Origin: Dehalococcoidia bacterium
Lineage (GTDB): Bacteria > Chloroflexota > Dehalococcoidia > Lucifugimonadales > G965248475
Assembly (NCBI GenBank): GCA_965248475.1
Contig: OZ252106.1
Span: 1,337,365-1,401,364 of the forward strand
DNA: 64,000 bases
Direction of reading: 5' to 3'
This document shows positions 14,509-35,985 of the stretch, in pieces. The translations under genes were made by a program, and so were the position numbers. Every line of letters begins with the position of its first letter. Position 1 is the stretch's first letter. The notes beneath the pieces are model-generated. The model was not told the DNA's origin and did no database searches. It worked only from the letters and a program-made list of their open reading frames with translations.

Positions 14509-15567
14509 CTACCTAGCGGTGCGGGCCGCCCTGGCAAGCAAGCCCAGGAAGATCGCCCGCCCGTGGGGATGCGTGGCAAGCTCCGCCACGTCCGTGACCC
14601 CTTCAAGCAAGCGCACCGTGGCGGCCCGCCGTCCAAGCAAGCTCTCAAGCCGCTCGGCGGCCTCGCGGCCGGCATCGTCTGAGTCGAAGGCGAGGAACAC
14701 GCGGGGGAAGGCAAGCAAGCTACCTGCCACCCGCTCCATGCCCTGGGTCCCCAGGGCTGCGCAGGCGGGGAGGCCCCACTGCTCAAGGGCAAGCCAGTCG
14801 AACACCCCTTCAGTAAGGACCACCCAAGACGGCGCAAGGCCAAGCCGCCCAAGTCCAAGCACCGGCTTGGGTCCGGGCAGCGCCTGAAACCTCGGCGTCC
14901 GCTCCGGGTCAATGGCCCGGCCCACAAGCCAGCGGACGCGGCCCGAGGCCAGGTCGGGAACCACCACCATCCCTGCGAACCGCTCGCCCCGCTCGGTGAA
15001 CAGGCCCGACGCCCGTATCCGCTCGCCGCCGAATCCGGCGGCGCCAAGGTACTGGCGCAGCCCGTCCCCCGGCGCGTAGCCAAGACCCAGGCGGCAGGCG
15101 GTATCGAAGCTGATGCCCCTGGAGCCCAGATACTCACGCGCCTCACTGCTGCGCAGCATGGACCGGAGGTAGAACCTCGTTGCCGCCGACAGCGCCGCCG
15201 GGTCCCGCTGGGGAACCACGGGAGCAGCGGTACGCCGTGGCGCGGCCTGTGTCCTCGACCGGACGGCTGGGCTGGGAGCCAGCCCAGTCCCACCACCCAG
15301 CCTCTGTATCGCCTCGGGCAGGGTGAGGCCCTCGGCCCGCTGGATAAAGTCCAGCACGTCCCCACCAACTCCACAGCCGAAGCAGTAAAACCTGGACGCG
15401 TCGGCGTACACCGTAAAGCTGCCTTCCGACTCCTGGTGGAAGGGGCAGACGCCCTGACGGACGCGGCCCCTTCCCCTCAGCTGCACGCCCGCAGCCTCCA
15501 CCACGTCGGCCAGGGAATGGCGGCTCTTGAGCGCCGCCAGGTCAACCTGTGTGTTGGCTACGACCAT
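14509..15567 (-). CDS. DnaG-like primase (CHC2 Zn finger + TOPRIM)
   Basis: CPFHQE..FYCFGCG; LTEGVFD; FDSDDAG. Confidence 0.88.
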   Translation of the reverse strand: MVVANTQVDLAALKSRHSLADVVEAAGVQLRGRGRVRQGVCPFHQESEGSFTVYADASRFYCFGCGVGGDVLDFIQRAEGLTLPEAIQRLGGGTGLAPSPAVRSRTQAAPRRTAAPVVPQRDPAALSAATRFYLRSMLRSSEAREYLGSRGISFDTACRLGLGYAPGDGLRQYLGAAGFGGERIRASGLFTERGERFAGMVVVPDLASGRVRWLVGRAIDPERTPRFQALPGPKPVLGLGRLGLAPSWVVLTEGVFDWLALEQWGLPACAALGTQGMERVAGSLLAFPRVFLAFDSDDAGREAAERLESLLGRRAATVRLLEGVTDVAELATHPHGRAIFLGLLARAARTAR

Positions 15568-16025
15568 GACCCACCTCCTTTCAGGGGCTTCAGGCCCCGC
15601 AGGCTCCTCGCGGAGACCACCTTGCCCGGCTGCCACCCCATCCCCAGCACAGCCAGGACTTTCACGGTCCCGTCGCCGTGGGGAGCGAGCGCCGCAGCTC
15701 TGCCAGCGCCCTGGCTGTACACCAGGGTCTCGCTTTGCCCGAACCGTCGTCGCACCAGGTCCTGCCACTCGGCGAAGGCCCAACGCGCCTCGCGCACATC
15801 CGCCGTGGCGGTGTCCAGGTCGGCTATGAGCGTCAACGCACCGTCGAGGTTCCCCGCCTTCCGCAGCCGCCGTGCGTCGTGGACCCTCCGGGCCACGGTC
15901 TCCTGGGGCTGCTCACGGTTGCTGGCAAAGAGGGCATCCATCACCCGGTCCACCAGCTCCTCCAGACTGCGCCTGGGCCTTTCACCCACTACCATCGTTC
16001 CGTAATTCATCACTGCCGTTGTCAT
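15558..16025 (-). CDS. Hypothetical protein
   Basis: GGAGG RBS, overlaps neighbouring start/stop codons. Confidence 0.6.
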   Translation of the reverse strand: MTTAVMNYGTMVVGERPRRSLEELVDRVMDALFASNREQPQETVARRVHDARRLRKAGNLDGALTLIADLDTATADVREARWAFAEWQDLVRRRFGQSETLVYSQGAGRAAALAPHGDGTVKVLAVLGMGWQPGKVVSARSLRGLKPLKGGGSWS

Positions 16026-18194: not shown

Positions 18195-18797
18195 TTGGCA
18201 CTGAGATCGACCCTGAAATCCATAAAGGCGATGCGGCTGACGCTCATCGCCGGGGCGCTGCTCCTGGCGGCGCTGGTGGCCACCCCCGCAAGCAACCTGG
18301 CGTTGGCCGCACCCCTACAGCAGAGCGGCGGGTTCACCCTGGTCAACGAGGACGAGGAGTTCATCAAGCGCCACGACGACGGTAGCTTCGAGGCCAAGCC
18401 CATCTTCAGCGCGGACCCCACCTGGGCCGGCTACGGGGTCAAGGACCCGGTGACCGGCGAGTGGCTTACCGCCCTCTACTTCATCCAGGACGACCCCAAG
18501 GAGAAGGACCGGGGCTGGGAGTACGACATCGACTACCCCGAGTACGACGAGCAGCCCGAGCTGGAGCCGGACAGGGCGTACACCCTGGTGCTGTACGTCT
18601 TCCACGAGTATGAGCTCTACGACTTCGAGGTCATCATCCCCGCCCATGAAGGTTCGGGGTTGTGGGACAGGGTGCTGAACGCTCTGAACCCGTCCCGCTG
18701 GGCCAAGGCATTTGCGGGTTGGGTGGTGGAGGGCATCCACGGAATCCTGTGCAGCGTCCTGAGCAAGATCACCGGCTCGGACCCGGCCAACTGCTAG
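18195..18797 (+). CDS. Secreted protein, first gene of the transfer operon
   Basis: Signal peptide ending ALA-AP; acidic body; amphipathic C-terminal helix. Confidence 0.7.
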   Translation: MALRSTLKSIKAMRLTLIAGALLLAALVATPASNLALAAPLQQSGGFTLVNEDEEFIKRHDDGSFEAKPIFSADPTWAGYGVKDPVTGEWLTALYFIQDDPKEKDRGWEYDIDYPEYDEQPELEPDRAYTLVLYVFHEYELYDFEVIIPAHEGSGLWDRVLNALNPSRWAKAFAGWVVEGIHGILCSVLSKITGSDPANC

Positions 18798-18811
18798 GGG
18801 GAATGCAACAC

Positions 18812-19798
18812 ATGACCGACATCCTCACCGGCACCCCGCCCAATTTGACCTACCTGCACGAAGCCGTCCAGCAAGCCTGGATGGTGGTGTGGGTCGTCGT
18901 GGCTGCGGGCCTGGGGGTCATCCTGGCGTGGGCGGGCATCACCATGATCTTCCGGGAGCACCTGGGGGGTCACGACTTCGGCTGGAGGGAGCTGGTGCCC
19001 CGGTTGATGATCGCCGTGGTCGCCGCCTCCACCTCTCTGTGGTGGGGCTCCTTCATCATCGACCTGGCCGACAGCATATCCCGGTTCGTGGCCGTCTCGT
19101 TAGAGGTGACGGCGGGAGACCTGCTGAGAGCGCCCCTGGACGTGTTCCTCCAGGCCATCCAGGTGGGCAACACGGGACTGGCTCTGGCCCTGGCGCTGCT
19201 CTATCTCGTCTATGGATTCTTCATCCTCTACGTGATCGGCCAGTTCATCATCCGCCTCGCCCTCATCGACCTGCTGCTGGTGCTGGCTCCCGTGGCGTTG
19301 GGGCTGTGGGTCCTCCCCATGACCGCCGGGTGGGGCCGCTACTGGCTGAAGACCTTCCTGGTGACGGTGTTTCAGCAGTCGGTCCAGCTGGTCGCCCTGG
19401 CCCTGGCCATCGCCTTCCTGGACGACTTCGCCTCCATCGGTGCAGGCCAGCCGGTCAACGACTTCCTGTGGCAGCTGTTGATGAGCATCGCCTTCGTCTA
19501 CCTGACCACCAGGGTCCCCTCGATGCTTGGCACCACCGGGGTGTTCGACGCCTGGCTGCGCACCCTCCACTACGGGGCATCCATGCTCATGGCCCTCCCC
19601 AGGATGATGCACGCGGCGGGCATGGCAACCGGCGCTATGTCGGCTGCCGGTGCGATGAAGGCCGGGGCGGCAGGCAGTGGGGGCGGCGTTGGAAGCTGGC
19701 TCCCCGCTGCGGCGGGCCTCGCCAAGGGCGGCGGCGGAGGCGAAGCATCGACGGGCAACACGTCGGCGGGGATGCCGCCCCGCAGCATGAACGAGTGA
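18812..19798 (+). CDS. VirB6/TrbL-like polytopic membrane protein
   Basis: Multiple TM helices, IRLALIDLLLVLAPVAL..LP.T..W..YW, Gly/Ala-rich tail. Confidence 0.8.
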   Translation: MTDILTGTPPNLTYLHEAVQQAWMVVWVVVAAGLGVILAWAGITMIFREHLGGHDFGWRELVPRLMIAVVAASTSLWWGSFIIDLADSISRFVAVSLEVTAGDLLRAPLDVFLQAIQVGNTGLALALALLYLVYGFFILYVIGQFIIRLALIDLLLVLAPVALGLWVLPMTAGWGRYWLKTFLVTVFQQSVQLVALALAIAFLDDFASIGAGQPVNDFLWQLLMSIAFVYLTTRVPSMLGTTGVFDAWLRTLHYGASMLMALPRMMHAAGMATGAMSAAGAMKAGAAGSGGGVGSWLPAAAGLAKGGGGGEASTGNTSAGMPPRSMNE

Positions 19799-19861
19799 TC
19801 AACGGCCCCTGAGTGGGGGCCTCAATCAGCCGGCAACACAAAAGTGAGAAGGAGTTTACGC

Positions 19862-20149
19862 ATGAGCGATCTGATTCAGACCGTATCCAACATCGTGGGC
19901 ATCTTGTTAGCGATGGTGGGTGTCGTCGGCACGGGGTTCTTCATCTACGGGTCCTTCCTGTACCTCTCCGCCTCCGGCGCGCCCCACCAGATGGAGCGGG
20001 GCAAGAGCGCCATGTTCACGGCCCTGGCCGGGGTGGTGCTGGCGCTGCTGGCCTATGGGGTGATGAACCTCATCATCAACGCCGCCATCGGCAGTCCCGT
20101 GACCCCCGAATTGCCCAACCCGAGCAACCCGTCCGGCAACTCGTCTTAG
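19862..20149 (+). CDS. VirB2/TrbC-like pilin
   Basis: Two hydrophobic helices joined by SASGAPHQMERGKSA. Confidence 0.75.
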   Translation: MSDLIQTVSNIVGILLAMVGVVGTGFFIYGSFLYLSASGAPHQMERGKSAMFTALAGVVLALLAYGVMNLIINAAIGSPVTPELPNPSNPSGNSS

Positions 20150-20162
20150 GAGGTGTACGCCC

Positions 20163-22928
20163 TTGCGTGAACACGAAGTACCCACTCACTTGCAAACGGA
20201 GGACAAGGTCCTGCTGGGCCTGACCTTCCCCCAGATCGTAGCCATAGCCGCGGTCGTCGGGTTGGCCTACGGGCTATGGAAGCAGGCCGCCTTCCTCCCC
20301 GACGGCGCCTTCCGTCTGGGCGCCGCCATCGCCGTCGGCCTTCTGGGGCTGGCTATGGTGGCCGTGCGCCCCGGAGGGAGGGGGCTGCCCATAGTGATCT
20401 TGGACCTGCTCCGCTTCGCCCTTTCGCCCAAACGGTACGAGGGAGAGGTCACCGCGCTGCTCAACCCTCCGGTAGCAACGCCGCCCAAGCCCAAATCTCA
20501 AAAGAAGAAAGGACGCCGCAGACTGTGGAGGTTCCGGCTGAAGGGACTCCCCTTCAAGTGCCTGAGCCTCCTCCTGGCCGTGATGGTCATCCTGACCTCC
20601 ATCGCGCCGTCTGCGGCCCTTGCCGCTGGACCGGCGAGCGGCCCCGACCCCCAACGGCTCTTCATCGAGGCGTGGCGGGTGCGGGGCAACGAGGCCGAGC
20701 TGACCCTTCGTGCGGCAACGTCCCTGGAGGTGCAGGTCACCACCGAGACCCACGACCGCTACCGGCCCTTCTACACCCAGGGGGTCCTCTACCGGGGAGA
20801 GCCCCGGCAGTACACCATCCCCCTCACGGCAAACCACAAGGCCATCGTCATCTCCTGGCGGGACGCCCTGGGCAACGCCGGCATCCGAGTGCTGGACCAG
20901 AACAGCATTCCCTACCCCCTGCCAGGGCTGGAGACCGCCGACTGCGGCCTCTCCATGACCGAGGTGGGTTGGCGGCTGGGCAACGTCACGGGCCGCCTCT
21001 CCAGCGCCTGCAACAGCCGGGCGGAGGAGGTCGTCGAAGCCACTGTCCTCACCGACCCGGCGGACCCCGCCGCAGTGGTGAGCCGGAAGCTGCTCCTGGA
21101 TGCCGACGTCGCCGATGTGACCGGCGAGGTGTACCTGGCGACCTCGGCGGCCGGGTCTACCACCGGCCTGGCCTTCGCCCGGGACGGCGACATGCCCTTC
21201 AACTTCTCCCTCCCCCAGGAGGACCGCGTCCACCAGGTATCCCTTCGAGCGGACATCACGTCGACCCGTGTGATCCCCCTGCCGGGCAGGGTGGACCTCA
21301 CCCACAACGAGGAGCAGTCCCTCATCGAACGGATACCCGTCATAGGCTACTTTGCGGGCTTCTATCACACGGTGAGCTCGACCCTGAGCGCCTGGTTCGG
21401 CCCGGTGGTCCATACGGTCTCGGCCACTCTGAGCGCCTGGTTCGGGCCGGTGGTCCGCACCCTCTCGGCAACCCTGAGCGCGGCCTGGGGGGCCGTCACC
21501 CACACCGTGGGCGGGTGGATATCCGCAACCGTGGGCAAGTGGCTATCGGCCATCGTGAGCGCCGAGGTGTGGACCGTGCTCGGCGCAGTGCTTTCGGGCA
21601 CCGTGGGCAAGTGGCTATCGGCCGTCGTGAACGCCGAGGTGTGGACCATCCTGGGCGCGGTGCTTTCGGGCACCGTGGGAACCTGGCTCTCGGCCATCGT
21701 CGGAGCCACCGTCTGGACCACGGTGGGCTCATGGCTCTCCACGACGGTGGGCTCATGGGTCTCCACGACGGTGGGCTCGTGGGTCTCCAGGATCGTCGGC
21801 GTCACCGTCTGGACCACGGTCGGTTCATGGGTCTCCACCCTCGTCGGGGGCTTCACCACCGCCGTCAGTCACTGGGCAAACATCATCCTGGGCTGGCTGA
21901 GCTTCAATATATGGGTGCCCCAGGAGACGGCTTCTGGGTATGCCAGCGGCACCGCATCGGGCTACGCATCGGGAACGGCAACCGGCTACGCCAGCGGCAG
22001 CGCGACGGGCTACGCCTCCGGGACCGCGTCAGGCTACGCATCGGGAACCGCCTACGGCTACGCCTCCACCGAGGCTTCGAGCTATGCGTCGGGGACCGCC
22101 TACTCCTACGAATCGGAGTACGTATCGGGGACGGCCTCGGGCACCGCCATCGGCTACGCCGAGGACGAGGCGTCCACCTACGCGTCGGAGTATGTATCGG
22201 GGACGGCCTCGGGCACCGCCACCGGCTACGCCGAGGATGAGGCGTCCACCTACGCCACCACCGAGATCACCCTTCCCGCACAGACCGACCAGACGACCGT
22301 CAGCGAGACGGTCACCATCCCCGGCCAGACCCAGAGCCAGACGGTCAGCGAGACCGTCACCTTGCCGGGGCAGAGCCAGAGTCGGCACGTCAGCGAGGAC
22401 GTATGGGTGGAGGGCAAGGAGGTGACCCAGGAGGTGGACGTGGAGGTCGTCATCCCCGCCTACACCTCGGCCGAGGTGACGGAGCAGGAGCCCCTGGTGC
22501 GCCACTACCGGGACGTGCTCTCCACCGCCTTCCCCATCCTCTCGGACGCTCCATTCGAGGCATTGCCCGACCCGCCGGAGGACTCCGACATCCCCTCGGA
22601 GCCGGAGCAGTACCTCCAACTCATCGAGGACCAGGACGACGAGGATGAAGACGAGGACGACTCCACCAATCCCTACAAGGACGCCCTGGACCACATGGAG
22701 GACAACAACTACTTCGACCTCAGTCCCGACGAGGCGGCCAAGCTCCGCACCGAGCTCTACATGGCTTGGCTTGACAGCCTCTCCATCTCCATCGAGGCAA
22801 GACAGCTCATGGAGGATGAGGCCGGGGCCGTGGTCTCGGAGAGGAGCTATACCGCCGAGGAGATCCCCGGCGAAGCCATCCCAGGCCAGGAGGTCTTCCG
22901 GGAGCTGGTGGGACAGGAGTTGCGGTAG
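20163..22928 (+). CDS. PrgI-family N-terminus fused to a large exported beta-rich region with mirror-symmetric repeats
   Basis: HEVPTHLQTEDKVLLGLTFPQI + 2 TM (PrgI-like), internal signal-like segment, repeats at aa ~402-756, acidic tail. Confidence 0.8.
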   Translation: MREHEVPTHLQTEDKVLLGLTFPQIVAIAAVVGLAYGLWKQAAFLPDGAFRLGAAIAVGLLGLAMVAVRPGGRGLPIVILDLLRFALSPKRYEGEVTALLNPPVATPPKPKSQKKKGRRRLWRFRLKGLPFKCLSLLLAVMVILTSIAPSAALAAGPASGPDPQRLFIEAWRVRGNEAELTLRAATSLEVQVTTETHDRYRPFYTQGVLYRGEPRQYTIPLTANHKAIVISWRDALGNAGIRVLDQNSIPYPLPGLETADCGLSMTEVGWRLGNVTGRLSSACNSRAEEVVEATVLTDPADPAAVVSRKLLLDADVADVTGEVYLATSAAGSTTGLAFARDGDMPFNFSLPQEDRVHQVSLRADITSTRVIPLPGRVDLTHNEEQSLIERIPVIGYFAGFYHTVSSTLSAWFGPVVHTVSATLSAWFGPVVRTLSATLSAAWGAVTHTVGGWISATVGKWLSAIVSAEVWTVLGAVLSGTVGKWLSAVVNAEVWTILGAVLSGTVGTWLSAIVGATVWTTVGSWLSTTVGSWVSTTVGSWVSRIVGVTVWTTVGSWVSTLVGGFTTAVSHWANIILGWLSFNIWVPQETASGYASGTASGYASGTATGYASGSATGYASGTASGYASGTAYGYASTEASSYASGTAYSYESEYVSGTASGTAIGYAEDEASTYASEYVSGTASGTATGYAEDEASTYATTEITLPAQTDQTTVSETVTIPGQTQSQTVSETVTLPGQSQSRHVSEDVWVEGKEVTQEVDVEVVIPAYTSAEVTEQEPLVRHYRDVLSTAFPILSDAPFEALPDPPEDSDIPSEPEQYLQLIEDQDDEDEDEDDSTNPYKDALDHMEDNNYFDLSPDEAAKLRTELYMAWLDSLSISIEARQLMEDEAGAVVSERSYTAEEIPGEAIPGQEVFRELVGQELR
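21366..22430 (+). repeat. Nested mirror-image coding repeats (45-nt, 24-nt and 72-nt units)
   Basis: 3x15 aa (21366-21500), 14x8 aa (21504-21839), turn (21840-21926), 14x8 aa (21927-22262), 15-aa units from 22263. Confidence 0.9.
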
Positions 22929-23266
22929 TGCTGAGAACTATACAACGCATCGTGAGCCTGGCGGCGCTTATCGCCTTCGCCCTCTTCACCACCGGAGCGT
23001 CCCACGGAGAGGCTGGGGCGGAGATGCTGGAGGAGTACAACCGCCTCCTCAACATCTTCATCCTCATCGCCGGCATCCTGGCGGGCTTCAGCCTGGTGTG
23101 GGCCGCCTTCGTCCTCATGTGGGGCGAGCCGGAGAACCCCCACGCCAGGGGAAAGGCCAAGGGCGCTGTCATCGGAGCCATCTCCGGCCTGGTGCTGGTG
23201 CTCCTGGCCAAGGGCCTCATGGTGCTCCTGGTGGACAGCACCACGGTGCTGCTGCCGACGCGTTAG
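22928..23266 (+). CDS. Second pilin-like membrane protein
   Basis: Signal-like N-terminus then two TM joined by GEPENPHARGKAKGA. Confidence 0.7.
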   Translation: MLRTIQRIVSLAALIAFALFTTGASHGEAGAEMLEEYNRLLNIFILIAGILAGFSLVWAAFVLMWGEPENPHARGKAKGAVIGAISGLVLVLLAKGLMVLLVDSTTVLLPTR

Positions 23267-23537: not shown

Positions 23538-23713
23538 TGCGCAGCAAGCAAAGGAACGGCAAAGGGGTCGACCAGAAGGAGACCCAATCGACCAATGGAG
23601 CGAGCCCACGGCGGCGGAAGCGGCCCAAGAGGGGCCGCCACCTGCCCCGGCACCGCCTCCCGCAGAAGGCCGTCGTTCGCATACCACTCAAACCCCAGGA
23701 GGTGCGCCCATGA
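23537..23713 (+). CDS. 58-aa highly basic peptide
   Basis: ATG overlaps upstream TGA and its stop overlaps the VirB4 ATG; RRRKRPKRGRH. Confidence 0.45.
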   Translation: MRSKQRNGKGVDQKETQSTNGASPRRRKRPKRGRHLPRHRLPQKAVVRIPLKPQEVRP

Positions 23714-25995
23714 AACGTCGCAAGTTCAGACCCCTTCGACGCAGCACCGGCGAAGGTCTTCATCCCCCGTCGGCAGAACAGGCGCCGGTGACCACAGACG
23801 AAGCGCCTGCTGAACCCCAACAACCCCAACCCGACGGACATGCCCCAAAGAAACCCAAGACTCCGCCGTCTCTGACCCGCTACTTTCCGATAGCGGGGCT
23901 GCATGACGAGACCATCCTGCGTCTCGGCGGCGTGGAGGTCTCCGTCATGGAGGTGCGGGGCCTGGAGGTGGAGCAGCCCATCATGGGGGCCTTCGCCGCT
24001 GTCCTCAACGCATTGGACTTCCCCATTCAGCTCCTGGTGCGACAGCACCCGCCTCGGCTGGGCGCCCTCCGGGACGCCCTGGAAGAACGACGACCCTCAA
24101 ACCTGGCCGAGGGCGTTGCCCAGGCGTCGGCCTCTTTAGGGGAGTTCCTGGGAGAGCTTGAGGAGCGCCCCGGCGTCGTGGACCGGCGCTTTTACGCCAT
24201 CGCTCTAAAGGCGCGGGCCGACGAGCTTCAGGGCCTCCTCACCAGGGCGGGCTTCGCCGTCTTCCCGCTCAAGGACAGGGCTCTGCGGCTGCTGGTCGAG
24301 TCCACCCTGCGGGGATGCGCTCCACCGGCCCCATCATCGGAGTCCCCTATGGTCATCGGCCTCAGCAGAGGCCAGCTCGACATGGGAGAGCGCCTGGGAA
24401 GGAGCTACCAGCTGACCCGATGGCCCCGGACGCTTCCCCTGGGGTACATGCAGCGGGTGTTGGCCCTGGGCCTACCCATGGACCTGTCCCTACACATCTC
24501 GCCCATCGCCACCGCCCAGGCCGTAAGGACCCTGGAGTGGCAGCGGGTGAAGATGGAGTCGGGCATCGCCATCTCGCTACGGCGGGGCAGGACGGCCTCT
24601 CCGGAGACGGAGATCGCCCTGGAGGACGCCTCCCGTCTCAGGGACGAGGTACACCGGGGCAGGGAGCGCCTGTTCAACGCCTCTTTCTCCATCACCATCC
24701 ATGCAGGGACAGCAGACTCGCTGAAGGAGCGGGGGCAGCAGCTTCGGGGCCTCTTCGCCGGGTCCATGGCCGTCCTGGACGCCATGAGATTCCGGCAGCG
24801 CGACGGCCACCTCTCCACGCTGCCCCTGGCCCTGAACCCGGGGGGCTCCTGGCGCACGGTGGACACCTCGACCCTGAGCTTTCTCTTGCCCTTCGCGCCC
24901 CCCGACCTGGACACCCGCAAGGGCACCCTCTTCGGCCTGGACCTGCGGTCGGGATCGGTGGTCACCTTCGACCCCTTCGACGGGGCCTTCCTCAACGCCA
25001 ACACGGTGGTCATGGCCAGGAGTGGAGCGGGGAAGTCCTTCTCCACCAAGCTGGGCCTGCTCAGGGGCATATCCAGGGGCATCGTCTACTACGTCATCGA
25101 CCCCGAAGGGGAGTACGCATCCCTGGCCCAGGTCGCAGGGGGAAGGGTGCTGACCCCCGGCGTTGCCGGTCACGGGCTCAACCCCTTCGTGCTGGAAGAG
25201 GAGGATGAGAGCGAGGTCCTGCAACGGGTGGGCGGTCTCAGGAGACTCATCGAGGTCATGGTGGGAGAGCGCTTCTCCCCCGAACAGCGGGCCACACTGG
25301 ACGAGGCCCTTACCGCCTACTACACCACCCATCGGGCCGTCACCGGCTTCCAGGACTTCTTCATATTCCTCGAATCTCAGGGTTATAAGGGGATGGCATC
25401 TCTGCTGAGACCCTTCGCCACCGGCAGCCTGCGCCACCTGCTCACCGACCAGGGGGCAGACCTGCTGGGAACCGAGCTTCCCATCACCGTCTTCAACCTT
25501 CGCCTGCTGGAGCCGGAGCTGCGGCCCGCCGCAACGCTGGTGTGCGCCGAGGCGGTCTGGTCCATGGCTTCCAGGGACCCCAAGCCCAGGGTGCTGGTGG
25601 TGGACGAGGTGTGGAGCATCATGCAGCACCCCGAGGGGGCCTCTTCCCTGGTCTCCCTGGCCAAGCGAGCAAGGAAGCACCATCTGGGCCTCATCTCCAT
25701 CACCCAGGATGTCCAGGACTTCCTCAGCGAGGACACCAGTAGGCCCATCGTGGGCCATTCGGGAAGGGTGCTTCTCCAGAACTCCGCATTCAAGCTGCTG
25801 CTCCAGCAGGACGCGGCGGCGCTGAGAGCGGTCGGGGAGTCCTTCGACCTCTCGGAGACCGACGTCCAGTGGCTTCTCTCCTGTCCCAGAGGGGATGGGA
25901 TGCTGATCGCCCGGGGCGGCCGCTTCCCCGTCCGCATCCTGGCCACGACCGAAGAGCAGGGGCTCATTGACGCCCGGCCTGCTGTACACAGCTGA
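23710..25995 (+). CDS. virB4: VirB4-like conjugation ATPase
   Basis: ARSGAGKS, YVIDPEGEY, VLVVDEVW, KRARKH..ISITQ. Confidence 0.92.
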   Translation: MKRRKFRPLRRSTGEGLHPPSAEQAPVTTDEAPAEPQQPQPDGHAPKKPKTPPSLTRYFPIAGLHDETILRLGGVEVSVMEVRGLEVEQPIMGAFAAVLNALDFPIQLLVRQHPPRLGALRDALEERRPSNLAEGVAQASASLGEFLGELEERPGVVDRRFYAIALKARADELQGLLTRAGFAVFPLKDRALRLLVESTLRGCAPPAPSSESPMVIGLSRGQLDMGERLGRSYQLTRWPRTLPLGYMQRVLALGLPMDLSLHISPIATAQAVRTLEWQRVKMESGIAISLRRGRTASPETEIALEDASRLRDEVHRGRERLFNASFSITIHAGTADSLKERGQQLRGLFAGSMAVLDAMRFRQRDGHLSTLPLALNPGGSWRTVDTSTLSFLLPFAPPDLDTRKGTLFGLDLRSGSVVTFDPFDGAFLNANTVVMARSGAGKSFSTKLGLLRGISRGIVYYVIDPEGEYASLAQVAGGRVLTPGVAGHGLNPFVLEEEDESEVLQRVGGLRRLIEVMVGERFSPEQRATLDEALTAYYTTHRAVTGFQDFFIFLESQGYKGMASLLRPFATGSLRHLLTDQGADLLGTELPITVFNLRLLEPELRPAATLVCAEAVWSMASRDPKPRVLVVDEVWSIMQHPEGASSLVSLAKRARKHHLGLISITQDVQDFLSEDTSRPIVGHSGRVLLQNSAFKLLLQQDAAALRAVGESFDLSETDVQWLLSCPRGDGMLIARGGRFPVRILATTEEQGLIDARPAVHS

Positions 25996-26035
25996 GCTAC
26001 CCATAGCAACTCACCTTCAGAAAGGAGAAACCACC

Positions 26036-28654
26036 ATGAAACTGAACCCCATAGGCTGGCTGCTGGGCGGCCAAAAGGACAAGAAGCCCCCGGTGCTGCT
26101 GGCGGTGACGCCGCCCCGCACCGGGGAGCGCACCCTGCTGGGCGTGGAGAACCTGCTCCAGTCCATCGCGGTCCCTGAGCCCTTCTCGTTGGAGCTGGCG
26201 GGAGACGCCGACGGCGTGACCCTCATGGCCCGCTGCCGCGACGACGAGGTGGTCAAGGGCCAGATATCGGCCCACTACCCCCAGGCCCGCATCCAGGATG
26301 TGCCCCACGAGGAGGACCCCCTGCGCCTTGACGAGGGAGAGGAGGCGTGGGGCATGACCCTGGCCGCCGACGGCCCCGACTACCTTCCCCTCCGCACCTT
26401 CCGGGACGACGACCTGCTGGACCCCGGCTCAGACCCGCTCATCGCACTGATCGGGGCCTTGTCTACCTTGCACGACAAGGAACGCATCGTGGCCCGGCTG
26501 TTGCTCCGCTCCCTGGGACCAGACTGGTCGGCGGCCCACATGAACAAGGCCGTCAGGAACCCCGCCACAGAGCACAGGGACGCCTCCTACACCTATCAGA
26601 CCAAGCCCCTCCAGACCGACGCCGTCCTCATGATCGTCCTGGGCCTGGCGGCCCTCAGCGTCTTCCAGGGCTACTTCTGGGTACAGGGCGGGGAGACGTG
26701 GAAGGCCGTACTCCTGGCCGCTGGCGTGGCCTTGGGGACGGTCGTGGCGGGCTGGGGATGGTGGCGCTGGAGGCGGGCTCGCTCCCGCGTCCACGACCCG
26801 CTGTTGATCAAGGAGAAGGTCTCCCGCATCGCCTTCGGCGCGGAGCTTCAGGTCACCGCCATTCTGCCCAAAGACGCTAAGGAGCCACGTCGCCGCGCAA
26901 ATGAGCTGCTGAGCCGGGTGGCGGCGGCCTACCGCCACTACGACAACCCCGCAGGCGCTCGCTTCAGGGTGGGCAAGGTGCGGCCTACGGTGCCGGTCCC
27001 GTCCTTGCAGCCCGCTTCCACGGGGCTCTTCGGCAAGCGAAGCGTCCTGGGGGTGCGGGAGGTGGCCTGCCTGTGGCACCCGCCGGGGGCTAGAGACGAG
27101 ACCCCCCTGGTGGAGCGGTCGGGAGCACGGGTGCTCCTCCCCTCGGCCAGAGGCACCAGGGGCGGCGCTCTGGTGGGCCAGACCACGGCGGGCAATCCCC
27201 GGGATATCCACTTCCCCGACGATCTGCTGCACCGCCACCACCTCTACGTAGCCCGCACCCGCATGGGGAAAAGCACCCTCATGCACCACATCGTCTCCCA
27301 CAAGCTGAAACAGAAGGCCGAGGGCAAGGACCCCGACGCCATCGTCGTTGTCGATCCCCACGCCGACCTGGTGAGCGGGCTGCTGGGGCAGGTGCCCGAG
27401 TCCCTCGTCGACCGGGTGCGCCTCATCGACCTGGCCGACGATGCGGGGGCTCCCGGCATCAACCTGCTCGACACCAGAATATTTGCCGACAGGGACCGCA
27501 CCGCCGACTCGGTGGTACGGGTCGCCAAGGGCCTCTGGGACCAGTGGGGGCCGAGGATGCAGTCCATCCTGGAGCAGACCGTCAAGACCCTCCACGAGGC
27601 CAATGAGAGGATGGACGCCGATCAGCAATACACCATCCTGGACGGGCTCAGGCTCCTCTCCGACGACAAGTTCCAGGCCAAGGTGCTGGCCAAGGTGAGC
27701 GACCCCTACCTGCTTGAGTGGTGGAGCAGGGACTTCAGTAACTGGCACCGCCAGTACAAGGCGGAGGCTCTGGCCCCCGTCCAGACCCGCCTCTCCTACT
27801 ACGCCTCATCCAAAAAGGCACGGGCCATCCTGGGCCAGTCCCGCTCCACCATCGACATGCGCCAGCTGATCCTGGACGGCGGCGTGCTGCTGGTCTCCAC
27901 CTCCCAGGGAACGGCGGGCAGGGACGTGGCCGCCCTGGTGGGGGCCTCCATCCTGAACCTGGTGGACGCGGTGATTCGGGAGCAGGGAGCCCTGCCCCTG
28001 GAAAAACGCAGGGGCGTCCTGGTGGTGGTGGACGAGATGCAGTCCATGCCCGGCGTGGACTACGAGACCATGCTCTCCGAGCTGGGGAAGTTTGGGGCAT
28101 CGTTCATCCTCGCCACCCAGGGCCTGGCCAAGCTGGGCGACCTCTCCCGCACCATGCAGGACTCCATCATGTCCAACGTGGGCTGCCTGGCCGTCTTCCA
28201 GGTGGCGGGTAACGACGCAAGGACCCTGGTCTGGGAGCTGGGAAAGGACCGGGTCTCCGAGGATGACATCACCTCTCTGCCGGTGCACCACTGCTACGTG
28301 CGGGCCACCGTGGAGAAGGAGCGGCTCCCCGTCTTCTCCATGGCCGTCAGGAAGCCCGAGGCGGGAGACCCCGAAGTCGCCGCCCGCATCCGCGCCGCCA
28401 CTGCCGGCTACGCCACCCCGGTGAAGGAGATAGCAGCCGGCCAGGCCGAGTCGGAGCGGCTGGTGGAGCAGTACCGGGCGGCGATTGCGGCCCTGGAGAG
28501 GGGCAATAAGACCCCGCCCAGCAATGGCGCGGCTCCCAAGAAACGGGACAAGCCCTCCAAGCGGCGCAATCAGCGAACCAAGCGGGACAAGGCGGCTGGC
28601 GCAACCGAGACGAAGAAGGAGCAAGACGCTCCTGAAGAGGAGCAGGGCGCATGA
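26036..28654 (+). CDS. Type IV coupling protein (VirD4/TraG-like)
   Basis: Two TM, ARTRMGKS, VVVDPHAD, LVVVDEMQ, ILATQ. Confidence 0.88.
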   Translation: MKLNPIGWLLGGQKDKKPPVLLAVTPPRTGERTLLGVENLLQSIAVPEPFSLELAGDADGVTLMARCRDDEVVKGQISAHYPQARIQDVPHEEDPLRLDEGEEAWGMTLAADGPDYLPLRTFRDDDLLDPGSDPLIALIGALSTLHDKERIVARLLLRSLGPDWSAAHMNKAVRNPATEHRDASYTYQTKPLQTDAVLMIVLGLAALSVFQGYFWVQGGETWKAVLLAAGVALGTVVAGWGWWRWRRARSRVHDPLLIKEKVSRIAFGAELQVTAILPKDAKEPRRRANELLSRVAAAYRHYDNPAGARFRVGKVRPTVPVPSLQPASTGLFGKRSVLGVREVACLWHPPGARDETPLVERSGARVLLPSARGTRGGALVGQTTAGNPRDIHFPDDLLHRHHLYVARTRMGKSTLMHHIVSHKLKQKAEGKDPDAIVVVDPHADLVSGLLGQVPESLVDRVRLIDLADDAGAPGINLLDTRIFADRDRTADSVVRVAKGLWDQWGPRMQSILEQTVKTLHEANERMDADQQYTILDGLRLLSDDKFQAKVLAKVSDPYLLEWWSRDFSNWHRQYKAEALAPVQTRLSYYASSKKARAILGQSRSTIDMRQLILDGGVLLVSTSQGTAGRDVAALVGASILNLVDAVIREQGALPLEKRRGVLVVVDEMQSMPGVDYETMLSELGKFGASFILATQGLAKLGDLSRTMQDSIMSNVGCLAVFQVAGNDARTLVWELGKDRVSEDDITSLPVHHCYVRATVEKERLPVFSMAVRKPEAGDPEVAARIRAATAGYATPVKEIAAGQAESERLVEQYRAAIAALERGNKTPPSNGAAPKKRDKPSKRRNQRTKRDKAAGATETKKEQDAPEEEQGA

Positions 28655-30306
28655 CCCTCACCGAGTGCCAGGAAGAGCTACTGGGACATCTGGCAGCCAT
28701 GCCCTTTCTCGACCGGCTGGAGCTGGTCGCCGTCTCCGGCTGGTCTCGGGGCTCGGTCTACGAGAGCGTCGAGAAATTTGAGGCCGAGGGCCTCGCCGCC
28801 TCCGTCCCCCACGCCACGGACGTCACGCCGCCAACGCTCCGCTTCTATCTCACCCCATCTGGGCTGCACCGGCTGGCACGGGACGAGGGCATGACCGTGA
28901 ATGAGCTTCTGAACCTCTATCCCGTCTCCGCCCGGTGGCAGCGCATCCTGCTGGAGCGGCTGGATGCCGCCGCAGTCATCTACCGGCTCGCTGCCACTAT
29001 CTCCAACATCGCCCACCCCATCCGCTTCCGCTGGTACCGGGCCATGCCCATGGACGCCGCCATCATCCTTCCCGATGAACGCATCATCGGCGTCGTCAGG
29101 CAGGGACTCACCTCCGACAGGACGAGCTTCTCCAAGCGGCTGTGGAGGCTCAGGGACGGCCCGTCGCCCAGCGCCATCCTTGCCCTGCTTCCCGACGAGG
29201 TGCGCCTCCGACAGGCGAGGAGGCTGCTGGCAGGAGCGCCGGCCGCTTCGTTCCTCGCCCTTGAGCGGGACGCTGTGTCGGCAGACCCATCCACGCCCGT
29301 ATGGCGCATACCCTCGGACTCGGTATCCCTCGACCTCAGTAGGGCCTTGAAGCACACCAGCCCCAACGGAGATCTGCCTACCGAGGAGCCGCCCGAGCGG
29401 GTCTCCCTCCCCGAACACCTCAACGTGGACGGGCAGGACGACTCCGCACCCGACCACCTGCTGCCTGCGCTGCTCAAATCGACGGAGAAGCGCTGCCTCG
29501 ACCTGCTCTCCGACTGGCCCTGGATGACGCCCGCTCACCTGGGTGGGGTGCTGGAGGTGAAGCGGTCAAGGATCTCCCAGCTTCTGCAACGGCTCACAAG
29601 CCTGGGTCTCGTCATCGACGACGTTGTAGAGGGCCGTCGCCGCCTCATCCTTTCCGACCTGGGGCTCTCTGTCCTCGCAAGGCGCGATCGCACCTCCGTG
29701 GGCGCGATGAAGAAGCGATGGAGCGCCTCCCTTACAGACCCGGACCGTGCCGCTACCTGGCGAAACGTCTCCGGAGCAAGAGCCCGTCAGCTGCTCAGGA
29801 ACATTCAGCACACCGATGCGGTGCACTGGTTCATAGCCGTCCTGGCGAAACAGGCCCGCAGCCGGGGACGGGAGCTGGCGCAGCTCGACTCCCCTGGACG
29901 GGCCTCCCGGTACTTCCGCTACGCAGAGAGGCTCCACTCGGTCCGTCCCGACGCCTTCGGCCTGCTGCACAACGGACAGGCGATCTGGCCCTTCTTCCTG
30001 GAATGGGAGCGCCGGGCGGTACGCCCCGTGACCATGGCGGCCAGGATCGCCCCCTACCTGCGCTACTACTCCACCCACCGGCCCACCGACGACCACGGCG
30101 CTCAGCCCTCGTTGCTGGTCGTCTTCGACGACGACGTGGCCGAGACCCACTTTCTCCGCATCGCCAAAGAGGAGATGGACACCGCGAAGGTGCAGGTGCC
30201 CCTGTTTGTGGCTCCCAGAAACCTGTTGGAGAGGGTGGGGCCGCTGGGTCCGGCCTGGCGCACCCCTGACCGCTGGGAGCCTATCCATCCTTTCAACGAC
30301 CCCTAA
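28651..30306 (+). CDS. Replication-relaxation (Replic_Relax/MOBC-like) protein with two tandem modules
   Basis: Two wHTH-type starts (aa ~1 and ~272); second module HTDAVHWF..VRPDAFG..FFLEWERR; follows the T4CP. Confidence 0.75.
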   Translation: MTLTECQEELLGHLAAMPFLDRLELVAVSGWSRGSVYESVEKFEAEGLAASVPHATDVTPPTLRFYLTPSGLHRLARDEGMTVNELLNLYPVSARWQRILLERLDAAAVIYRLAATISNIAHPIRFRWYRAMPMDAAIILPDERIIGVVRQGLTSDRTSFSKRLWRLRDGPSPSAILALLPDEVRLRQARRLLAGAPAASFLALERDAVSADPSTPVWRIPSDSVSLDLSRALKHTSPNGDLPTEEPPERVSLPEHLNVDGQDDSAPDHLLPALLKSTEKRCLDLLSDWPWMTPAHLGGVLEVKRSRISQLLQRLTSLGLVIDDVVEGRRRLILSDLGLSVLARRDRTSVGAMKKRWSASLTDPDRAATWRNVSGARARQLLRNIQHTDAVHWFIAVLAKQARSRGRELAQLDSPGRASRYFRYAERLHSVRPDAFGLLHNGQAIWPFFLEWERRAVRPVTMAARIAPYLRYYSTHRPTDDHGAQPSLLVVFDDDVAETHFLRIAKEEMDTAKVQVPLFVAPRNLLERVGPLGPAWRTPDRWEPIHPFNDP

Positions 30307-30333: not shown

Positions 30334-31092
30334 ATGCGTCTGTACTACATCGACGAGTCCGAAGGCCCCCGCTACTACGTCCGCTCCGCCCTGGGAGTGG
30401 ATGGCGAGGTCTGGAACCGGCTCTTTGCCGGCATCCACGCATGGCGTCTGGAGCTAATGGAGCGGTACGGAATCCCCCTGTCCAGGGAGCTTCACGCCTG
30501 CGACCTGCTGGCGGGACGGGGGCTGCTCGCCAAGAACGGAACGAACAGCGAACGGGTGTCCGTGGCACAGGGAGCCAGTGTCTTTCTGGAGGGTCTGTGC
30601 CGCCTGGAGGATGCCGCCAGGCGCATGGGCGGCATCGAGGTCATCAACGTCTGCCTCCACAAGCCGGAGAGCAGGAGGTACGAGCAGGCCAGCCTTGACC
30701 GCCTCCTCAACCGCATCAACACCTCGGTCACCTCAGCCAATAGGCACGCCTTCCTCATCTTCGACGAGGGCAAGGAGGAGATGATCGCCCGGCTCTACGG
30801 TAGGCTCAAGGTGCGCAACCACGTTCCCAGCCGCTACGACCTCTGGGAGGACGGGGAGAAGACCAGGAACATCCCCATAGAGCACGTCATCGGTGGCCCC
30901 GCCTTCCGCAGCTCCAAGGACGACTACCTGCTTCAGATGGCGGACTTCATCGCTCATGCCCTGCTGAAGCAGCAGGAGGAACCCGTCCCTAGAGTAGAGA
31001 ACCACGGCATCGCCGAAGCCTTCTCCATCCTCGACGTGGCCCTCAATAGGCAGGCGTCGAGGCGGGACCCCCAGGGGGTTGTAAGGAGATGA
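30334..31092 (+). CDS. DUF3800-family protein (RNase H-like acidic motifs)
   Basis: YYIDES N-terminus, ELHA, IFDEG, LLQMADFIA. Confidence 0.85.
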   Translation: MRLYYIDESEGPRYYVRSALGVDGEVWNRLFAGIHAWRLELMERYGIPLSRELHACDLLAGRGLLAKNGTNSERVSVAQGASVFLEGLCRLEDAARRMGGIEVINVCLHKPESRRYEQASLDRLLNRINTSVTSANRHAFLIFDEGKEEMIARLYGRLKVRNHVPSRYDLWEDGEKTRNIPIEHVIGGPAFRSSKDDYLLQMADFIAHALLKQQEEPVPRVENHGIAEAFSILDVALNRQASRRDPQGVVRR

Positions 31093-34311: not shown

Positions 34312-35985
34312 ATGAACACCGACAAAGGGATGAACGGCAACGTGGCGCTCTACGCACGGGTGTCCAGCAACCGGCAGGACGTGGACCTGTCCGTGTCCGC
34401 CCAGCTCAGGGCGCTTCGAGACTACGCGGAGAAGAACGGCTACGTCGTAGCGCGGGAGTATGTGGACGAGGCCGAGAGCGGGCGCATCGCCGACCGGCCC
34501 CAATTCAGAAAGATGCTGGACGAGGCCAGCAAGCCCACCTCTCCCTTCCATGAGATTCTTGTTTGGAAGTTCTCACGCTTCACCCGCAAACGGGAGCACG
34601 CCGTGGCTTTCAAGTCCATGCTAAGGAAGCGGGGTATCAAAGTCGTCTCTATCACCGAGCACGCCGACGACTCCCCCACAGGCAAGCTCATGGAGGCCAT
34701 CATCGAGAGCGTGGACGAGTTCTACTCTGAAAACTTGGCCCAAGAAGTCGTCCGAGGGATGCGGGAAGCCGCCATACGGGGCTTCTGGGTCTCCACCTAC
34801 GCTCCCTTCGGGTACAGGAAGGTGTCGGTCCAGGACGGAGCAAAGAAGCGGCCCAAGCTGGAGCTGGACCCGCCGGCGGACTCAGTGATCCGGCGCATCT
34901 TCCAGATGGCCCTACAGGGCAAGAGCACCCTGGACATCACCAAGACGCTGAATGGTGAGGGCATCCCCACCTCAACGGGCAAGCACTGGTTGAAGTCCAC
35001 TGTGCACCGCATCCTCTCCAACGAAGCGTATACAGGAACGCTGGTCTGGGGCGTCGATGCCAAGGACGGAGCGCCGCCTGTGCGGGTGGAGGACGCATTC
35101 CCCGCAATAGTCACCAAGCAGGAGTTCCGACGCATCACCCGCTCCCTTCGCTCCAAGGCCCCGGCCAGGGTCAACCCCCGGCGTGCATCCAGCCCCTACC
35201 TCCTCAGCGGCTTGGTGAAATGTGAGAAGTGCGGAAAGGCGCTCACTGCGGCTGAGGCCAAGAGCGGCAAGTACAGCTACTACGTCTGCCACTCACTGCT
35301 GAAAAAGGGCAAGGGAACCTGCAAGACGCCTCGCCTCAACTCCAAGCGCTTTGAGAAGCTGATGATCGAGCAGATTCGCGCAAACATCCTCACGGAAAGC
35401 AACATCCGGGACCTGGTTAGACTGATGGACGAGGAGATGGACGGGGTGGCTGCTGAGCAGCGGGAGAGGCTGGAAAACATCGAAGCGGAGCTTATCGAGG
35501 TGCGGCGGCGCTTGGACCGGGTGTGGCACGTCATCGAGAACTCGGAACTCGACATATCCGACGCCACCTCCCGCATCAGAGAGCACCGGGAGCGTCAGGA
35601 GAAACTGGAGATCGCCGCAGAGGAGGCCAGGGCATTGCTCTCAGAGCGCCGGGCCGTGCTGGACAACGTGGACACCATCGCCGCCTTCGCCGAGGACATG
35701 AGCGACTTCCTGATGACCAGCGAAATCACCGAATCGAGGGCCTTCATCAAGTCCTTCGTCAAGGAGATCAAGGTCAAGCCAGGAAAGGCGACGGTCTACT
35801 ACACCCTACCCACGCCGCCGGACAGCCCGATAGGGGGCGGAGACGCCGCAGAGGTGGCTCTCCACGGCCCAGTAGTTCGCAGTTCAGTACACGTTGGTGG
35901 GCCGTCAGGGATTCGAACCCTGGACACGCGGATTAAAAGTCCGCTGCTCTGCCAGACTGAGCTAACGGCCCACAAAGCTAACTGA
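34312..35985 (+). CDS. Large serine recombinase (ICE integrase)
   Basis: ALYARVSS, DEAESG..DRPQF, SRFTR, PFGY, YLLSGLVKCEKCG, YYVC, coiled coil. Confidence 0.95.
   Translation: MNTDKGMNGNVALYARVSSNRQDVDLSVSAQLRALRDYAEKNGYVVAREYVDEAESGRIADRPQFRKMLDEASKPTSPFHEILVWKFSRFTRKREHAVAFKSMLRKRGIKVVSITEHADDSPTGKLMEAIIESVDEFYSENLAQEVVRGMREAAIRGFWVSTYAPFGYRKVSVQDGAKKRPKLELDPPADSVIRRIFQMALQGKSTLDITKTLNGEGIPTSTGKHWLKSTVHRILSNEAYTGTLVWGVDAKDGAPPVRVEDAFPAIVTKQEFRRITRSLRSKAPARVNPRRASSPYLLSGLVKCEKCGKALTAAEAKSGKYSYYVCHSLLKKGKGTCKTPRLNSKRFEKLMIEQIRANILTESNIRDLVRLMDEEMDGVAAEQRERLENIEAELIEVRRRLDRVWHVIENSELDISDATSRIREHRERQEKLEIAAEEARALLSERRAVLDNVDTIAAFAEDMSDFLMTSEITESRAFIKSFVKEIKVKPGKATVYYTLPTPPDSPIGGGDAAEVALHGPVVRSSVHVGGPSGIRTLDTRIKSPLLCQTELTAHKAN
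35895..35971 (-). tRNA. tRNA-Lys(TTT)
   Basis: GGGCCGTTAGCTCAGTCTGGCAGAGCAGCGGACTTTTAATCCGCGTGTCCAGGGTTCGAATCCCTGACGGCCCACCA. Confidence 0.97.

Follow-up and report, generated by a model that had tools for sequence, protein, structure and literature searches.

Matched repeat arms around a conserved hydrophobic tip in a VirB3/PrgI-like conjugation protein of Dehalococcoidia

What do two arrays of tandem repeats form when they stand in mirrored order, with equal periods and equal numbers of units, inside a single protein of a conjugation machinery? The question is raised by a gene in a 64,000-nucleotide stretch of DNA from a Dehalococcoidia bacterium (GenBank assembly GCA_965248475.1, contig OZ252106.1, positions 1,337,365 to 1,401,364 of the forward strand), referred to here as the window and numbered from its first letter. 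The gene occupies 20163..22928 of the + strand (TTG start, stop codon counted in), as taken from the list of open reading frames (ORFs) and their translations, and encodes a 921-residue protein (P0001) of a type IV secretion system (T4SS). The middle of the protein consists of two repeat arms around a short tip. The out arm comprises three 15-residue units of the TVSxTLSAWFGPVVx type (aa 403-447, 21369..21503, +), followed by 14 octamers of the TVGxWxSx or TVGxWLSx type (aa 448-559, 21504..21839, +). The tip is a hydrophobic, Trp-rich segment of 29 residues (aa 560-588, 21840..21926, +; sequence LVGGFTTAVSHWANIILGWLSFNIWVPQE) with a hydrophobic stretch of about 22 residues. The return arm reverses the order, with 14 octamers of the TASGYASG type (aa 589-700, 21927..22262, +) and then three 15-residue units of the TVSETVTxPGQxQSx type (aa 701-745, 22263..22397, +). 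Each 15-mer has a Pro-Gly or Gly-Pro pair, and the octamers are free of Pro. The repeat insertion thus covers 21369-22397, and the projection that it encodes amounts to 355 residues in the window protein.

This arrangement had been described in an earlier note, written from the sequence alone, which located it within 21366-22430 and read it as a giant antiparallel β-hairpin. The layout was confirmed at the positions where the note had cut the repeats, and Tandem Repeats Finder independently detected all arrays in the DNA: a period of 45 at 21381-21481 (85% matches), a period of 72 at 21528-21700 (89% matches), periods of 24 at 21720-21838 and 21951-22063, a second period of 72 at 22105-22255 (93% matches) and a second period of 45 at 22298-22397. 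The two 72-nucleotide arrays correspond to a 24-residue super-repeat, which takes up units 8-13 of each arm when units are numbered from the tip, so that like unit types are opposed. As the note had stated, TVGKWLSA stands opposite TAxGYAED at mirrored positions, and it does so twice; likewise, xVxAEVWT stands opposite YVSGTASG twice, and xLGAVLSG opposite EASTYASE or TAYSYESE. A palindrome in the DNA as the source of the mirror symmetry was rejected, as 21300-22500 holds just four short imperfect inverted pairs of 13-23 nucleotides. The window sits in a single contig of 2.4 Mb, and a contig from another study (run X10) is colinear with it over 20900-22652, with 26 differences and 0 gaps. The repeat observation is real.

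To compare the two arms across relatives, their lengths were measured between four sequence anchors, all of which are kept in 39 sequences; 40 of the 140 members of the largest cluster were covered, and 15 of them listed. Thirteen sequences were left out as shortened or frameshifted (P0021, P0024, P0025, P0026, P0028, P0029, P0031, P0036, P0041, P0186, P0200, P0209 and P0210). Giant arms occur in five lineages, and the tree of the non-repeat parts places these on separate deep branches, with about 0.5 changes per site between P0020 and its sister, the P0007 clade. The out and return arms measure 158/169 residues in the window clade (14/14 octamers), 198/209 both in the P0007 clade and in P0020 (19/19 octamers each), 118/129 in P0027 (9/9) and 117/128 in P0030 (7/7). 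The return arm therefore equals the out arm plus 11 residues in all five, and the octamer and 15-mer counts match separately. This is seen in P0030, each arm of which has one more 15-mer (+15 residues) and two fewer octamers than the corresponding arm of P0027. When the return arms were permuted among the lineages, only 2 of 120 permutations kept all five matched. The tip is 29 residues long in every lineage, with 11 of its 29 positions invariant and N or G at tip column 14 (aa 573), and on this alignment it appears to be the most conserved portion of the insertion.

A different picture emerged among close relatives, and it weighs against a strict coupling of the arms. There the arms vary independently: 21 of the 39 four-anchor sequences are mismatched, and the locus L004 is mismatched too. 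In the P0007 clade, 8 of 23 sequences are matched and the correlation between the arms is r = 0.04 (n = 23), and in the window clade the figures are 7 of 14 and r = 0.31 (n = 14). The mismatches among relatives reach seven octamers. Three of them lie on contigs longer than 1 Mb, all in the return arm (P0190, -9 residues; P0219, -15 residues; L004, -24 residues), and the mismatched states 158/154, 190/209 and 182/209 were each seen in two sequences, the second 182/209 sequence being P0026, assigned by its octamer counts. Given these long contigs and the recurrence, the mismatched alleles are probably real and not only assembly errors, which implies that mismatched arms can be tolerated, at least temporarily. 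The earlier note had held that the arms expand together, and had named beforehand independent variation among homologs as the observation that would count against pairing. Such variation was found within the clades, but the claim stands for the five deep lineages.

The two levels can be reconciled through the tree, where every mismatched row is a terminal branch of at most 0.06. Matched arms in deep lineages, with mismatches confined to short terminal branches, are what selection on paired arms would produce, although this falls short of proof of pairing. Over long times, then, the arms are coupled in length, and most likely they are paired; we consider the pairing itself probable. Each array would mutate alone by slippage, making mismatched alleles common and short-lived, and since the chain has to re-enter the domain that it left, and no unit may stay uncovered, selection would hold the arms equal in unit number and type. 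If the arms were instead unpaired, as independent low-complexity spacers or repeat domains whose equal counts are a historical accident, the independent changes within clades, the 21 mismatched sequences and the low confidence of structure predictors, as is seen for disordered regions, would all be expected. The exact match in five deep lineages of four sizes, for octamers and 15-mers separately, would then be a coincidence of the rarity given by the permutations. Nor would such arms account for a periodic pattern that persists where the repeats themselves have diverged (in P0020), for super-repeats at equal height in both arms, or for a chain that has to return to the same domain. We therefore regard unpaired arms as distinctly improbable.

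Length variation of the same kind was also seen in sequencing runs, which were compared as assembled contigs, so that the arms are not phased on single molecules and allele frequencies are not readable. In run X6, one contig skips 45 nucleotides, exactly one outgoing 15-mer (21383-21429), and another contig of low depth, with 23 nucleotides on its shorter side, skips 46 nucleotides at the start of the return 15-mers (22237-22284). On one molecule, the two skips would make a compensated 2/2 allele, a linkage that contigs cannot show. The RNA runs gave sampled-word fractions of only 0.12 and 0.06. Many relatives lose the reading frame inside or just past the repeats (P0021, P0025, P0028, P0029, P0186, P0200, P0209, P0210, P0006 and P0005); these losses could be long-read assembly errors, or real frameshifts that switch the gene off as in contingency loci.

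The earlier note had taken the sequences of the two arms to be unrelated. Comparison of 68 octamers per arm from the five lineages corrects this, in that both arms follow one pattern, T-hydrophobic-small-small-aromatic-hydrophobic-S-small, and the 15-mers of both start with TVSxT. Positions 2 and 6 of the octamer are close to 100% hydrophobic in both arms and position 5 is aromatic, with V, L and W of the out arm corresponding to A, A and Y of the return arm at positions 2, 6 and 5. The hydrophobic fraction in the out arm is 1.0 at positions 2 and 6, 0.82 at position 5, 0.29 at position 4 and 0.45 at position 8; the return arm has Gly or charged residues there. The repeats of P0020 have diverged strongly and accept K, E, R or D at positions 4 and 8, yet they conserve positions 2, 5 and 6, a sign of a fold rather than of composition alone. 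A hydrophobic, Trp-bearing out arm may lie antiparallel to a Tyr-bearing return arm of small residues, unit against unit, with the conserved tip capping the projection.

We slid the return arm against the reversed out arm over 97 shifts and scored opposite-charge minus like-charge pairs. Complementarity was best at shift -1, with 16 complementary pairs and 1 like pair, followed by shift +6 (15 versus 2) and then +32 and +3. In the 15-mer zone alone, shift -1 was the best of 61 (12 versus 1), and all five lineages contributed to it; in the octamer zone alone, the best shift was +3, and -1 shared third place with +6 and +28. Aromatic residues are opposed at shift +1. Shift -1 sets the center of the hairpin between aa 573 and 574, at the tip column that is N or G in all lineages. 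This signal has limits that count against reading a unique register from it: the best net score, 11 in the 15-mer zone, lies about 3 standard deviations out over 61 shifts, and the charge product at the level of whole units is lowest at offset 0 (-11), but offsets 5, 2, 3 and -3 give -9 to -7. The register signal, modest but coherent, would fit any model in which units at equal height are in contact.

Which structure the paired arms adopt is a separate matter. We tentatively favor, at a little below an even chance, a compact β-rich stalk of about 5-10 nm built from short strand-plus-turn units, as a β-solenoid or in two layers, in which V and L of one arm would pack against the two A of the other. 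Short strand-turn units are favored by the Pro-Gly or Gly-Pro pair in each 15-mer, by a Gly every 4-8 residues and by the charges at octamer positions 4 and 8, and sub-threshold matches of the out arm to the octapeptide β-helix of T4 gp5 in 8 of 39 relatives point the same way. The alternative is a continuous two-stranded antiparallel β-ribbon, 40-60 nm in length, whose strands of about 160-180 residues each would be joined by a tight turn midway along the tip; several copies would join by their V/L/A faces as a long needle or barrel that pierces or bridges to the recipient, possibly as a conduit. The equal residue periods of the two arms (8/8, 15/15 and 24/24), the near-palindromic octamer and the N or G at the center are points against the compact stalk, as they fit a continuous hairpin at least as well. 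In such a ribbon, the constant difference of 11 residues between return and out arm would follow, and the octamer, near-palindromic about position 4, would in the register p+q=8 set hydrophobic against hydrophobic residues and Gly3 against Tyr5, the two most conserved non-hydrophobic positions. This register is shift -1, the best for charge, and its center at aa 573/574 falls on N or G in all five tips, residues typical of tight β-turns. One face of the ribbon would be uniformly V, L, A and G, and the other T, S, W and Y. However, positions 4 and 8, which lie on that hydrophobic face, accept charged residues in P0020, and the spacing of Pro-Gly or Gly-Pro every 15 residues and of Gly every 4-8 residues is commoner in turns. 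The mismatches of up to seven octamers among relatives also speak against it, no prediction produced it, and we know of no solved two-stranded ribbon of such length. On balance, the continuous ribbon is rather unlikely.

The structure predictions themselves left the arms at low confidence. AlphaFold2, run on the window protein with the 39-sequence alignment, drew the out arm as long helices with a predicted local distance difference test score (pLDDT) of 25-38, and the return octamers over aa 597-689 as six-residue strands joined by two-residue turns (block pLDDT 54-66). In the model of P0030, which has the shortest arms, the pLDDT of the arms stayed below 50 throughout and the strand-turn fold did not appear. 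That no prediction gives confident cross-arm contacts, and that the out arm remains below 50 in both models, weighs against a paired stalk; still, as the arms are of low confidence in both, neither pairing nor its absence is readable from the monomer models that the earlier note had proposed as a check. In a VIA comparison, the modeled return octamers resembled β-solenoids, namely UspA1 (3pr7_A, Z 10.3), YadA (1p9h_A, Z 8.9) and the Rhagium antifreeze protein (6xnr, Z 8.5), with further matches to EibD, BoaA and a second antifreeze protein (Z 8.3). Overall, these matches have Z 8.3-10.3 at a root-mean-square deviation (rmsd) of 5.8-7.4 Å, and their force in favor of a solenoid is reduced by the tool's own note that Z 8-10 at an rmsd of about 6-7 Å nears what unrelated repeats reach. 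A complex prediction of the out arm (aa 397-566) with the return arm (aa 582-762) scored 0.00 and is evidence neither way.

Searches for related structures added little. A search of the arms and of P0007 against the sequences of PDB chains retrieved low-complexity look-alikes only (OCM3, an insert of a Plasmodium-type pyridoxal kinase, and TLP-4), with gp5 of phage T4 absent from the matches, and a search of the ESM Atlas with aa 397-762 gave no usable match. NCBIfam matches to flagellar FliH on aa 588-637 (21927-22070) scored 26.6 and 21.9 bits, where the cut-offs are 180 and 192. They were taken as compositional, since every fourth residue of the return arm is Gly, a periodicity also known from the Gly-repeat segments of FliH and YscL. 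The continuous ribbon of about 50 nm proposed in the earlier note, and with it the oligomeric barrel or needle and the DNA conduit, thus gained no support from models in which the out arm stays below a pLDDT of 50 and the return octamers form strand-turn units. A more far-reaching version can be imagined, in which several in-register ribbons of about 40-60 nm, held by a VirB3-VirB4 ring, assemble as a needle or tube whose Trp-rich tip resembles a fusion loop. In a wall-less, S-layered monoderm, such a structure would cross the envelope or pierce the recipient, or else serve as a ruler for the pilus that the two flanking pilins build, and the number of repeats would determine how far it reaches. 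We consider this unlikely.

The N-terminal part of the protein (aa 1-95, 20163..20447, +) is PrgI/VirB3-like and contains two predicted membrane helices (aa 22-41 and 49-67, block pLDDT 66-77). After a K/R-rich linker follows a third predicted membrane helix (aa 128-153, 20544..20621, +), and then an ectodomain modeled as an Ig-like β-sandwich (aa 160-400, 20640..21362, +, block pLDDT 81-94). Past the return arm, strands at aa 753-764, 767-773 and 778-794 are predicted to come back into this sandwich (aa 746-794, 22398..22544, +; block pLDDT 62-92 over aa 751-800), and an acidic, partly helical region with a D/E run forms the C-terminus (aa 795-921, 22545..22925, +, from translation and model). 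Compared by VIA with tandem Ig and fibronectin type III domains, the ectodomain matched filamin Ig 16-17 (5dcp_B, Z 8.2, rmsd 3.4, 144 residues aligned) and the fibronectin type III domains of 6mfa_A (Z 7.8), with alignments covering model residues 175..796. In a Foldseek search of the whole model against the PDB, just weak Ig-like and macroglobulin-like matches were found (best E 3.1e-04, query TM at most 0.10). By the positive-inside rule, the part of the protein beyond the membrane helices would lie outside the cell, and the return of the strands at aa 753-794 to the ectodomain places both arms on one side of the membrane.

The out-and-back course is also indicated by small relatives. The homolog search gave 33 homologs, and the relatives share the N-terminus MREHEVPTH. 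The short-form Dehalococcoidia homologs (about 530-600 residues, e.g. P0032-P0034) have the N-terminal part, the ectodomain and the C-terminal strands in common with the window protein, and Cys261 and Cys283 are among the residues invariant between them. In 22 short relatives (528-615 residues), only 2-40 residues stand at the site that holds 355 in the window protein; 12 of these carry a stretch of 34 residues with a TVSETVT-like and a TLSATLS-like half, which reads like a strand on either side of an NPDG-type turn. Because the repeats are inserted into an extracellular domain at a single point, the chain has to go out and return on the same side, and the location of the insertion at the short stretch of the small relatives makes the out-and-back projection with a hydrophobic tip, as put forward in the earlier note, well founded. 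The long projection may therefore have arisen by repeat expansion at this site.

A contrary topology would have the out arm and tip embedded in the membrane, with several passes, and the return arm across it. Such a course would be in keeping with an out arm rich in V, L, W, G, A and S and poor in charges, with the long helices drawn by AlphaFold2 and with the hydrophobic stretch of the tip. These helices, however, have a pLDDT of only 25-38, and the out arm is a continuous array of 112-152 residues that lacks polar loops and contains K, E and R. In addition, the strands past the return arm complete the extracellular β-sandwich with a block pLDDT of up to 92, and the matched arm lengths would be left with no reason. 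We regard a membrane-embedded arm as very improbable, and return to the extracellular projection.

The identity of the anchor rests on a weak profile match and on the neighboring genes. Pfam PF12666 (PrgI) matched aa 6-82 with E 0.0034 and 18.3 bits, below the cut-off of 27, so that the fusion to PrgI claimed in the earlier note is supported by its gene context, while the profile match is sub-threshold. PF12666 was matched by 21 of the 39 aligned relatives at E of at most 0.01 (best E 8.5e-07), and the top score among six relatives scanned singly was 26.5 bits (P0027), again below the cut-off. The window protein has in common with PrgI/VirB3 the two predicted membrane helices within its N-terminal 80-90 residues, where its sequence is also PF12666-like though below the cut-off, and its place in a T4SS cluster, shortly before the gene of a VirB4-like ATPase and near VirB6-like and VirB2-like genes. 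Upstream lie a TrbL/VirB6-like membrane protein (18662..19798, +; PF04610, E 0.0018, a weak match below the cut-off) and a VirB2-like T4SS pilin (19844..20149, +; PF18895, E 2.4e-08). Downstream follows a second VirB2-like pilin (22928..23266, +; PF18895, E 7.5e-10), so that the gene is flanked by pilin genes on both sides, and the VirB4-like ATPase (23710..25995, +; P-loop_TraG, E 1.4e-14) is one pilin gene further on. The longest ORF of the downstream pilin begins on the final base of the stop codon of the 921-residue gene, which suggests coupled translation. By this match and context, the protein would be a VirB3/PrgI-like subunit, probably an inner-membrane one, fused through its third membrane helix to the extracellular sandwich.

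Known PrgI/VirB3 proteins, a family found for instance in monoderm (MPF-FATA-like) systems and in Patescibacteria, are small. Unlike them, the window protein adds the third membrane helix, the Ig-like ectodomain, the 355-residue projection and the acidic tail. Among fusions of VirB3, excerpts of a published account mention VirB3-VirB4 only, and none with an ectodomain (PMC12102498). The same excerpts describe the T4SS of Patescibacteria, the sister phylum, as comprising PrgI/VirB3, VirB4, VirB6 and VirB2-like pilins, often in arrays (PMC12102498), a gene set that resembles that of the window element. Among T4SS proteins anchored by VirB3/PrgI, this one is a genuine variant and an unusual one.

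Giant arms are rare: they were found in only five lineages across a collection of 5.8 billion proteins and a library of 1.84 billion representatives. A homolog search with aa 380-845 of P0030 returned no further giant-arm lineage, only P0225, a piece of 505 residues; matches to the repeat region in the representative library (P0134, P0135 and P0165) were unrelated low-complexity proteins. A scan of genome contigs confirmed at least 534 relatives among 599 candidate stretches, with the best 80 loci retained. Relatives near and far come from metagenome-assembled genomes of Dehalococcoidia. The short form is very common in genomes of Dehalococcoidia and Tepidiformaceae, often in several copies per genome, and among the matches listed it also occurs on single contigs labeled Vicinamibacteraceae and Acidimicrobiaceae. 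One contig of 2.13 Mb carries two copies of the 921-residue form (L002 and L005), and another of 3.20 Mb (L003 and L007) carries a copy of the window clade (923 residues, 14/14 octamers) together with one of the P0007 clade (1006 residues, 19/19 octamers). With two forms in one genome, elements with different stalk lengths would coexist in one cell.

The nearest known design principle is that of the antigen I/II adhesins of streptococci. As excerpts of PMC6586375 describe them, two different repeat arrays, A and P, associate there into a stalk that holds the distal part of the protein off the cell. In those adhesins, the alanine-rich A repeats form an α-helix and the proline-rich P repeats a polyproline-II helix; a folded V domain makes up the tip, and LPXTG serves as the anchor. 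In contrast, the window protein has β-type arms of equal period, a 29-residue hydrophobic tip and a T4SS membrane subunit as its anchor, with no sequence relation. Membership of that family was rejected: the arms consist of Pro-free octamers of V/L/W/G/S/T and of A/S/G/T/Y, different in make-up from the A and P repeats, and LPXTG is absent from the translation of the window protein, which ends in ...VGQELR.

Two further systems were compared and set aside. The arms recall phage T4 gp5 and VgrG (PF22178) in having tandem octapeptides with one conserved Gly and an inward Val. According to excerpts of PMC3004832, the gp5 octapeptide forms a six-residue strand and a Gly kink, building first an antiparallel sheet and then an intertwined prism, 23 strands giving a prism 110 Å long; it has Gly at position a, Asn or Asp at b, Val at g and a polar residue at h. 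This motif was not found in the 68 out octamers, which read T-V-G-x-(W)-L/V-S-x, with Val directly before Gly and no Asn/Asp position, and gp5 has no return arm, unlike the window protein. PF22178 matched the out arm of 8 of the 39 relatives below threshold (three scanned singly gave 18.0-20.4 bits versus 30.9), and it gave no match to the window protein at E of at most 0.01. The earlier note had likened the arms to the stems of pore-forming toxins, in which a hairpin also projects from a β-rich domain and a hydrophobic end could insert into a membrane. The stems of β-barrel toxins such as α-haemolysin and anthrax protective antigen have tens of residues, are non-repeat and alternate strictly between polar and non-polar residues. 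The window-type arms differ in having 117-198 residues with hydrophobic ones at octamer positions 2, 5 and 6. Strict alternation is absent from them, given hydrophobic fractions of 0.29 and 0.45 at out-arm positions 4 and 8 and the Gly or charged residues at the same return-arm positions, so that this likeness was dropped.

Taken with its extracellular position, channel-subunit anchor, length variation, conserved tip and flanking pilin genes, the projection may act as an adjustable-length stalk anchored on the secretion machine, holding out its greasy tip to the envelope of the recipient or to the flanking pilins. A full-text literature search found no description of such a T4SS subunit, in agreement with the earlier note, and the evidence suggests a paired stalk, tunable in length and greasy at its tip, that as yet has no described counterpart among T4SS machines. 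In monoderms, the route that DNA takes to the recipient once it leaves the membrane channel is still an open question. Excerpts of PMC12102498 state that, beyond a few model groups, T4SSs are poorly characterized, and that the Gram-positive classes are thought to use adhesins and not pilins. Here, with a pilin gene on either side, the core channel subunit itself would bear an extracellular projection, with a length that evolves by repeat number. Should this projection be the part that reaches or enters the recipient, it would offer a directly testable handle, through changes to both arms together or to only one, and would show how a secretion machine is tuned in length in nature. The arms may also be viewed as a natural experiment in protein design, in which two arrays of the same pattern, one with large and one with small side chains, would each mutate alone and yet be held to equal numbers by selection.

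Given the T4SS gene context and the Dehalococcoidia relatives, the surrounding region is, by its gene content, an integrative conjugative element of Dehalococcoidia with a monoderm-type T4SS, and it apparently extends over about 2300-36000 of the window. Beyond the VirB4-like ATPase, the + strand encodes a coupling-protein-like ATPase (25967..28654; TrwB_AAD_bind, E 2.8e-05), a Replic_Relax/MarR-like protein by Pfam that is a candidate relaxase (28651..30306), and a large serine recombinase (34312..35985; Resolvase E 2e-31, Recombinase E 1.7e-21), the likely integrase of the element. A DUF3800 protein lies at 30334-31092. On the - strand are a DnaG-type primase (14509-15783), a DUF6094/N6 methyltransferase (7626-8663), a helicase (5203-7500) and a HATPase_c_3 protein (2332-3930).

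Finally, the D/E run near the C-terminus of the 921-residue protein (aa 826-833, about 22640-22660) varies in length among relatives, giving proteins of 921 and 923 residues. One of the contigs of run X10 has GACGAG inserted behind 22649, which makes this run a second, small length-variable tract of the gene.

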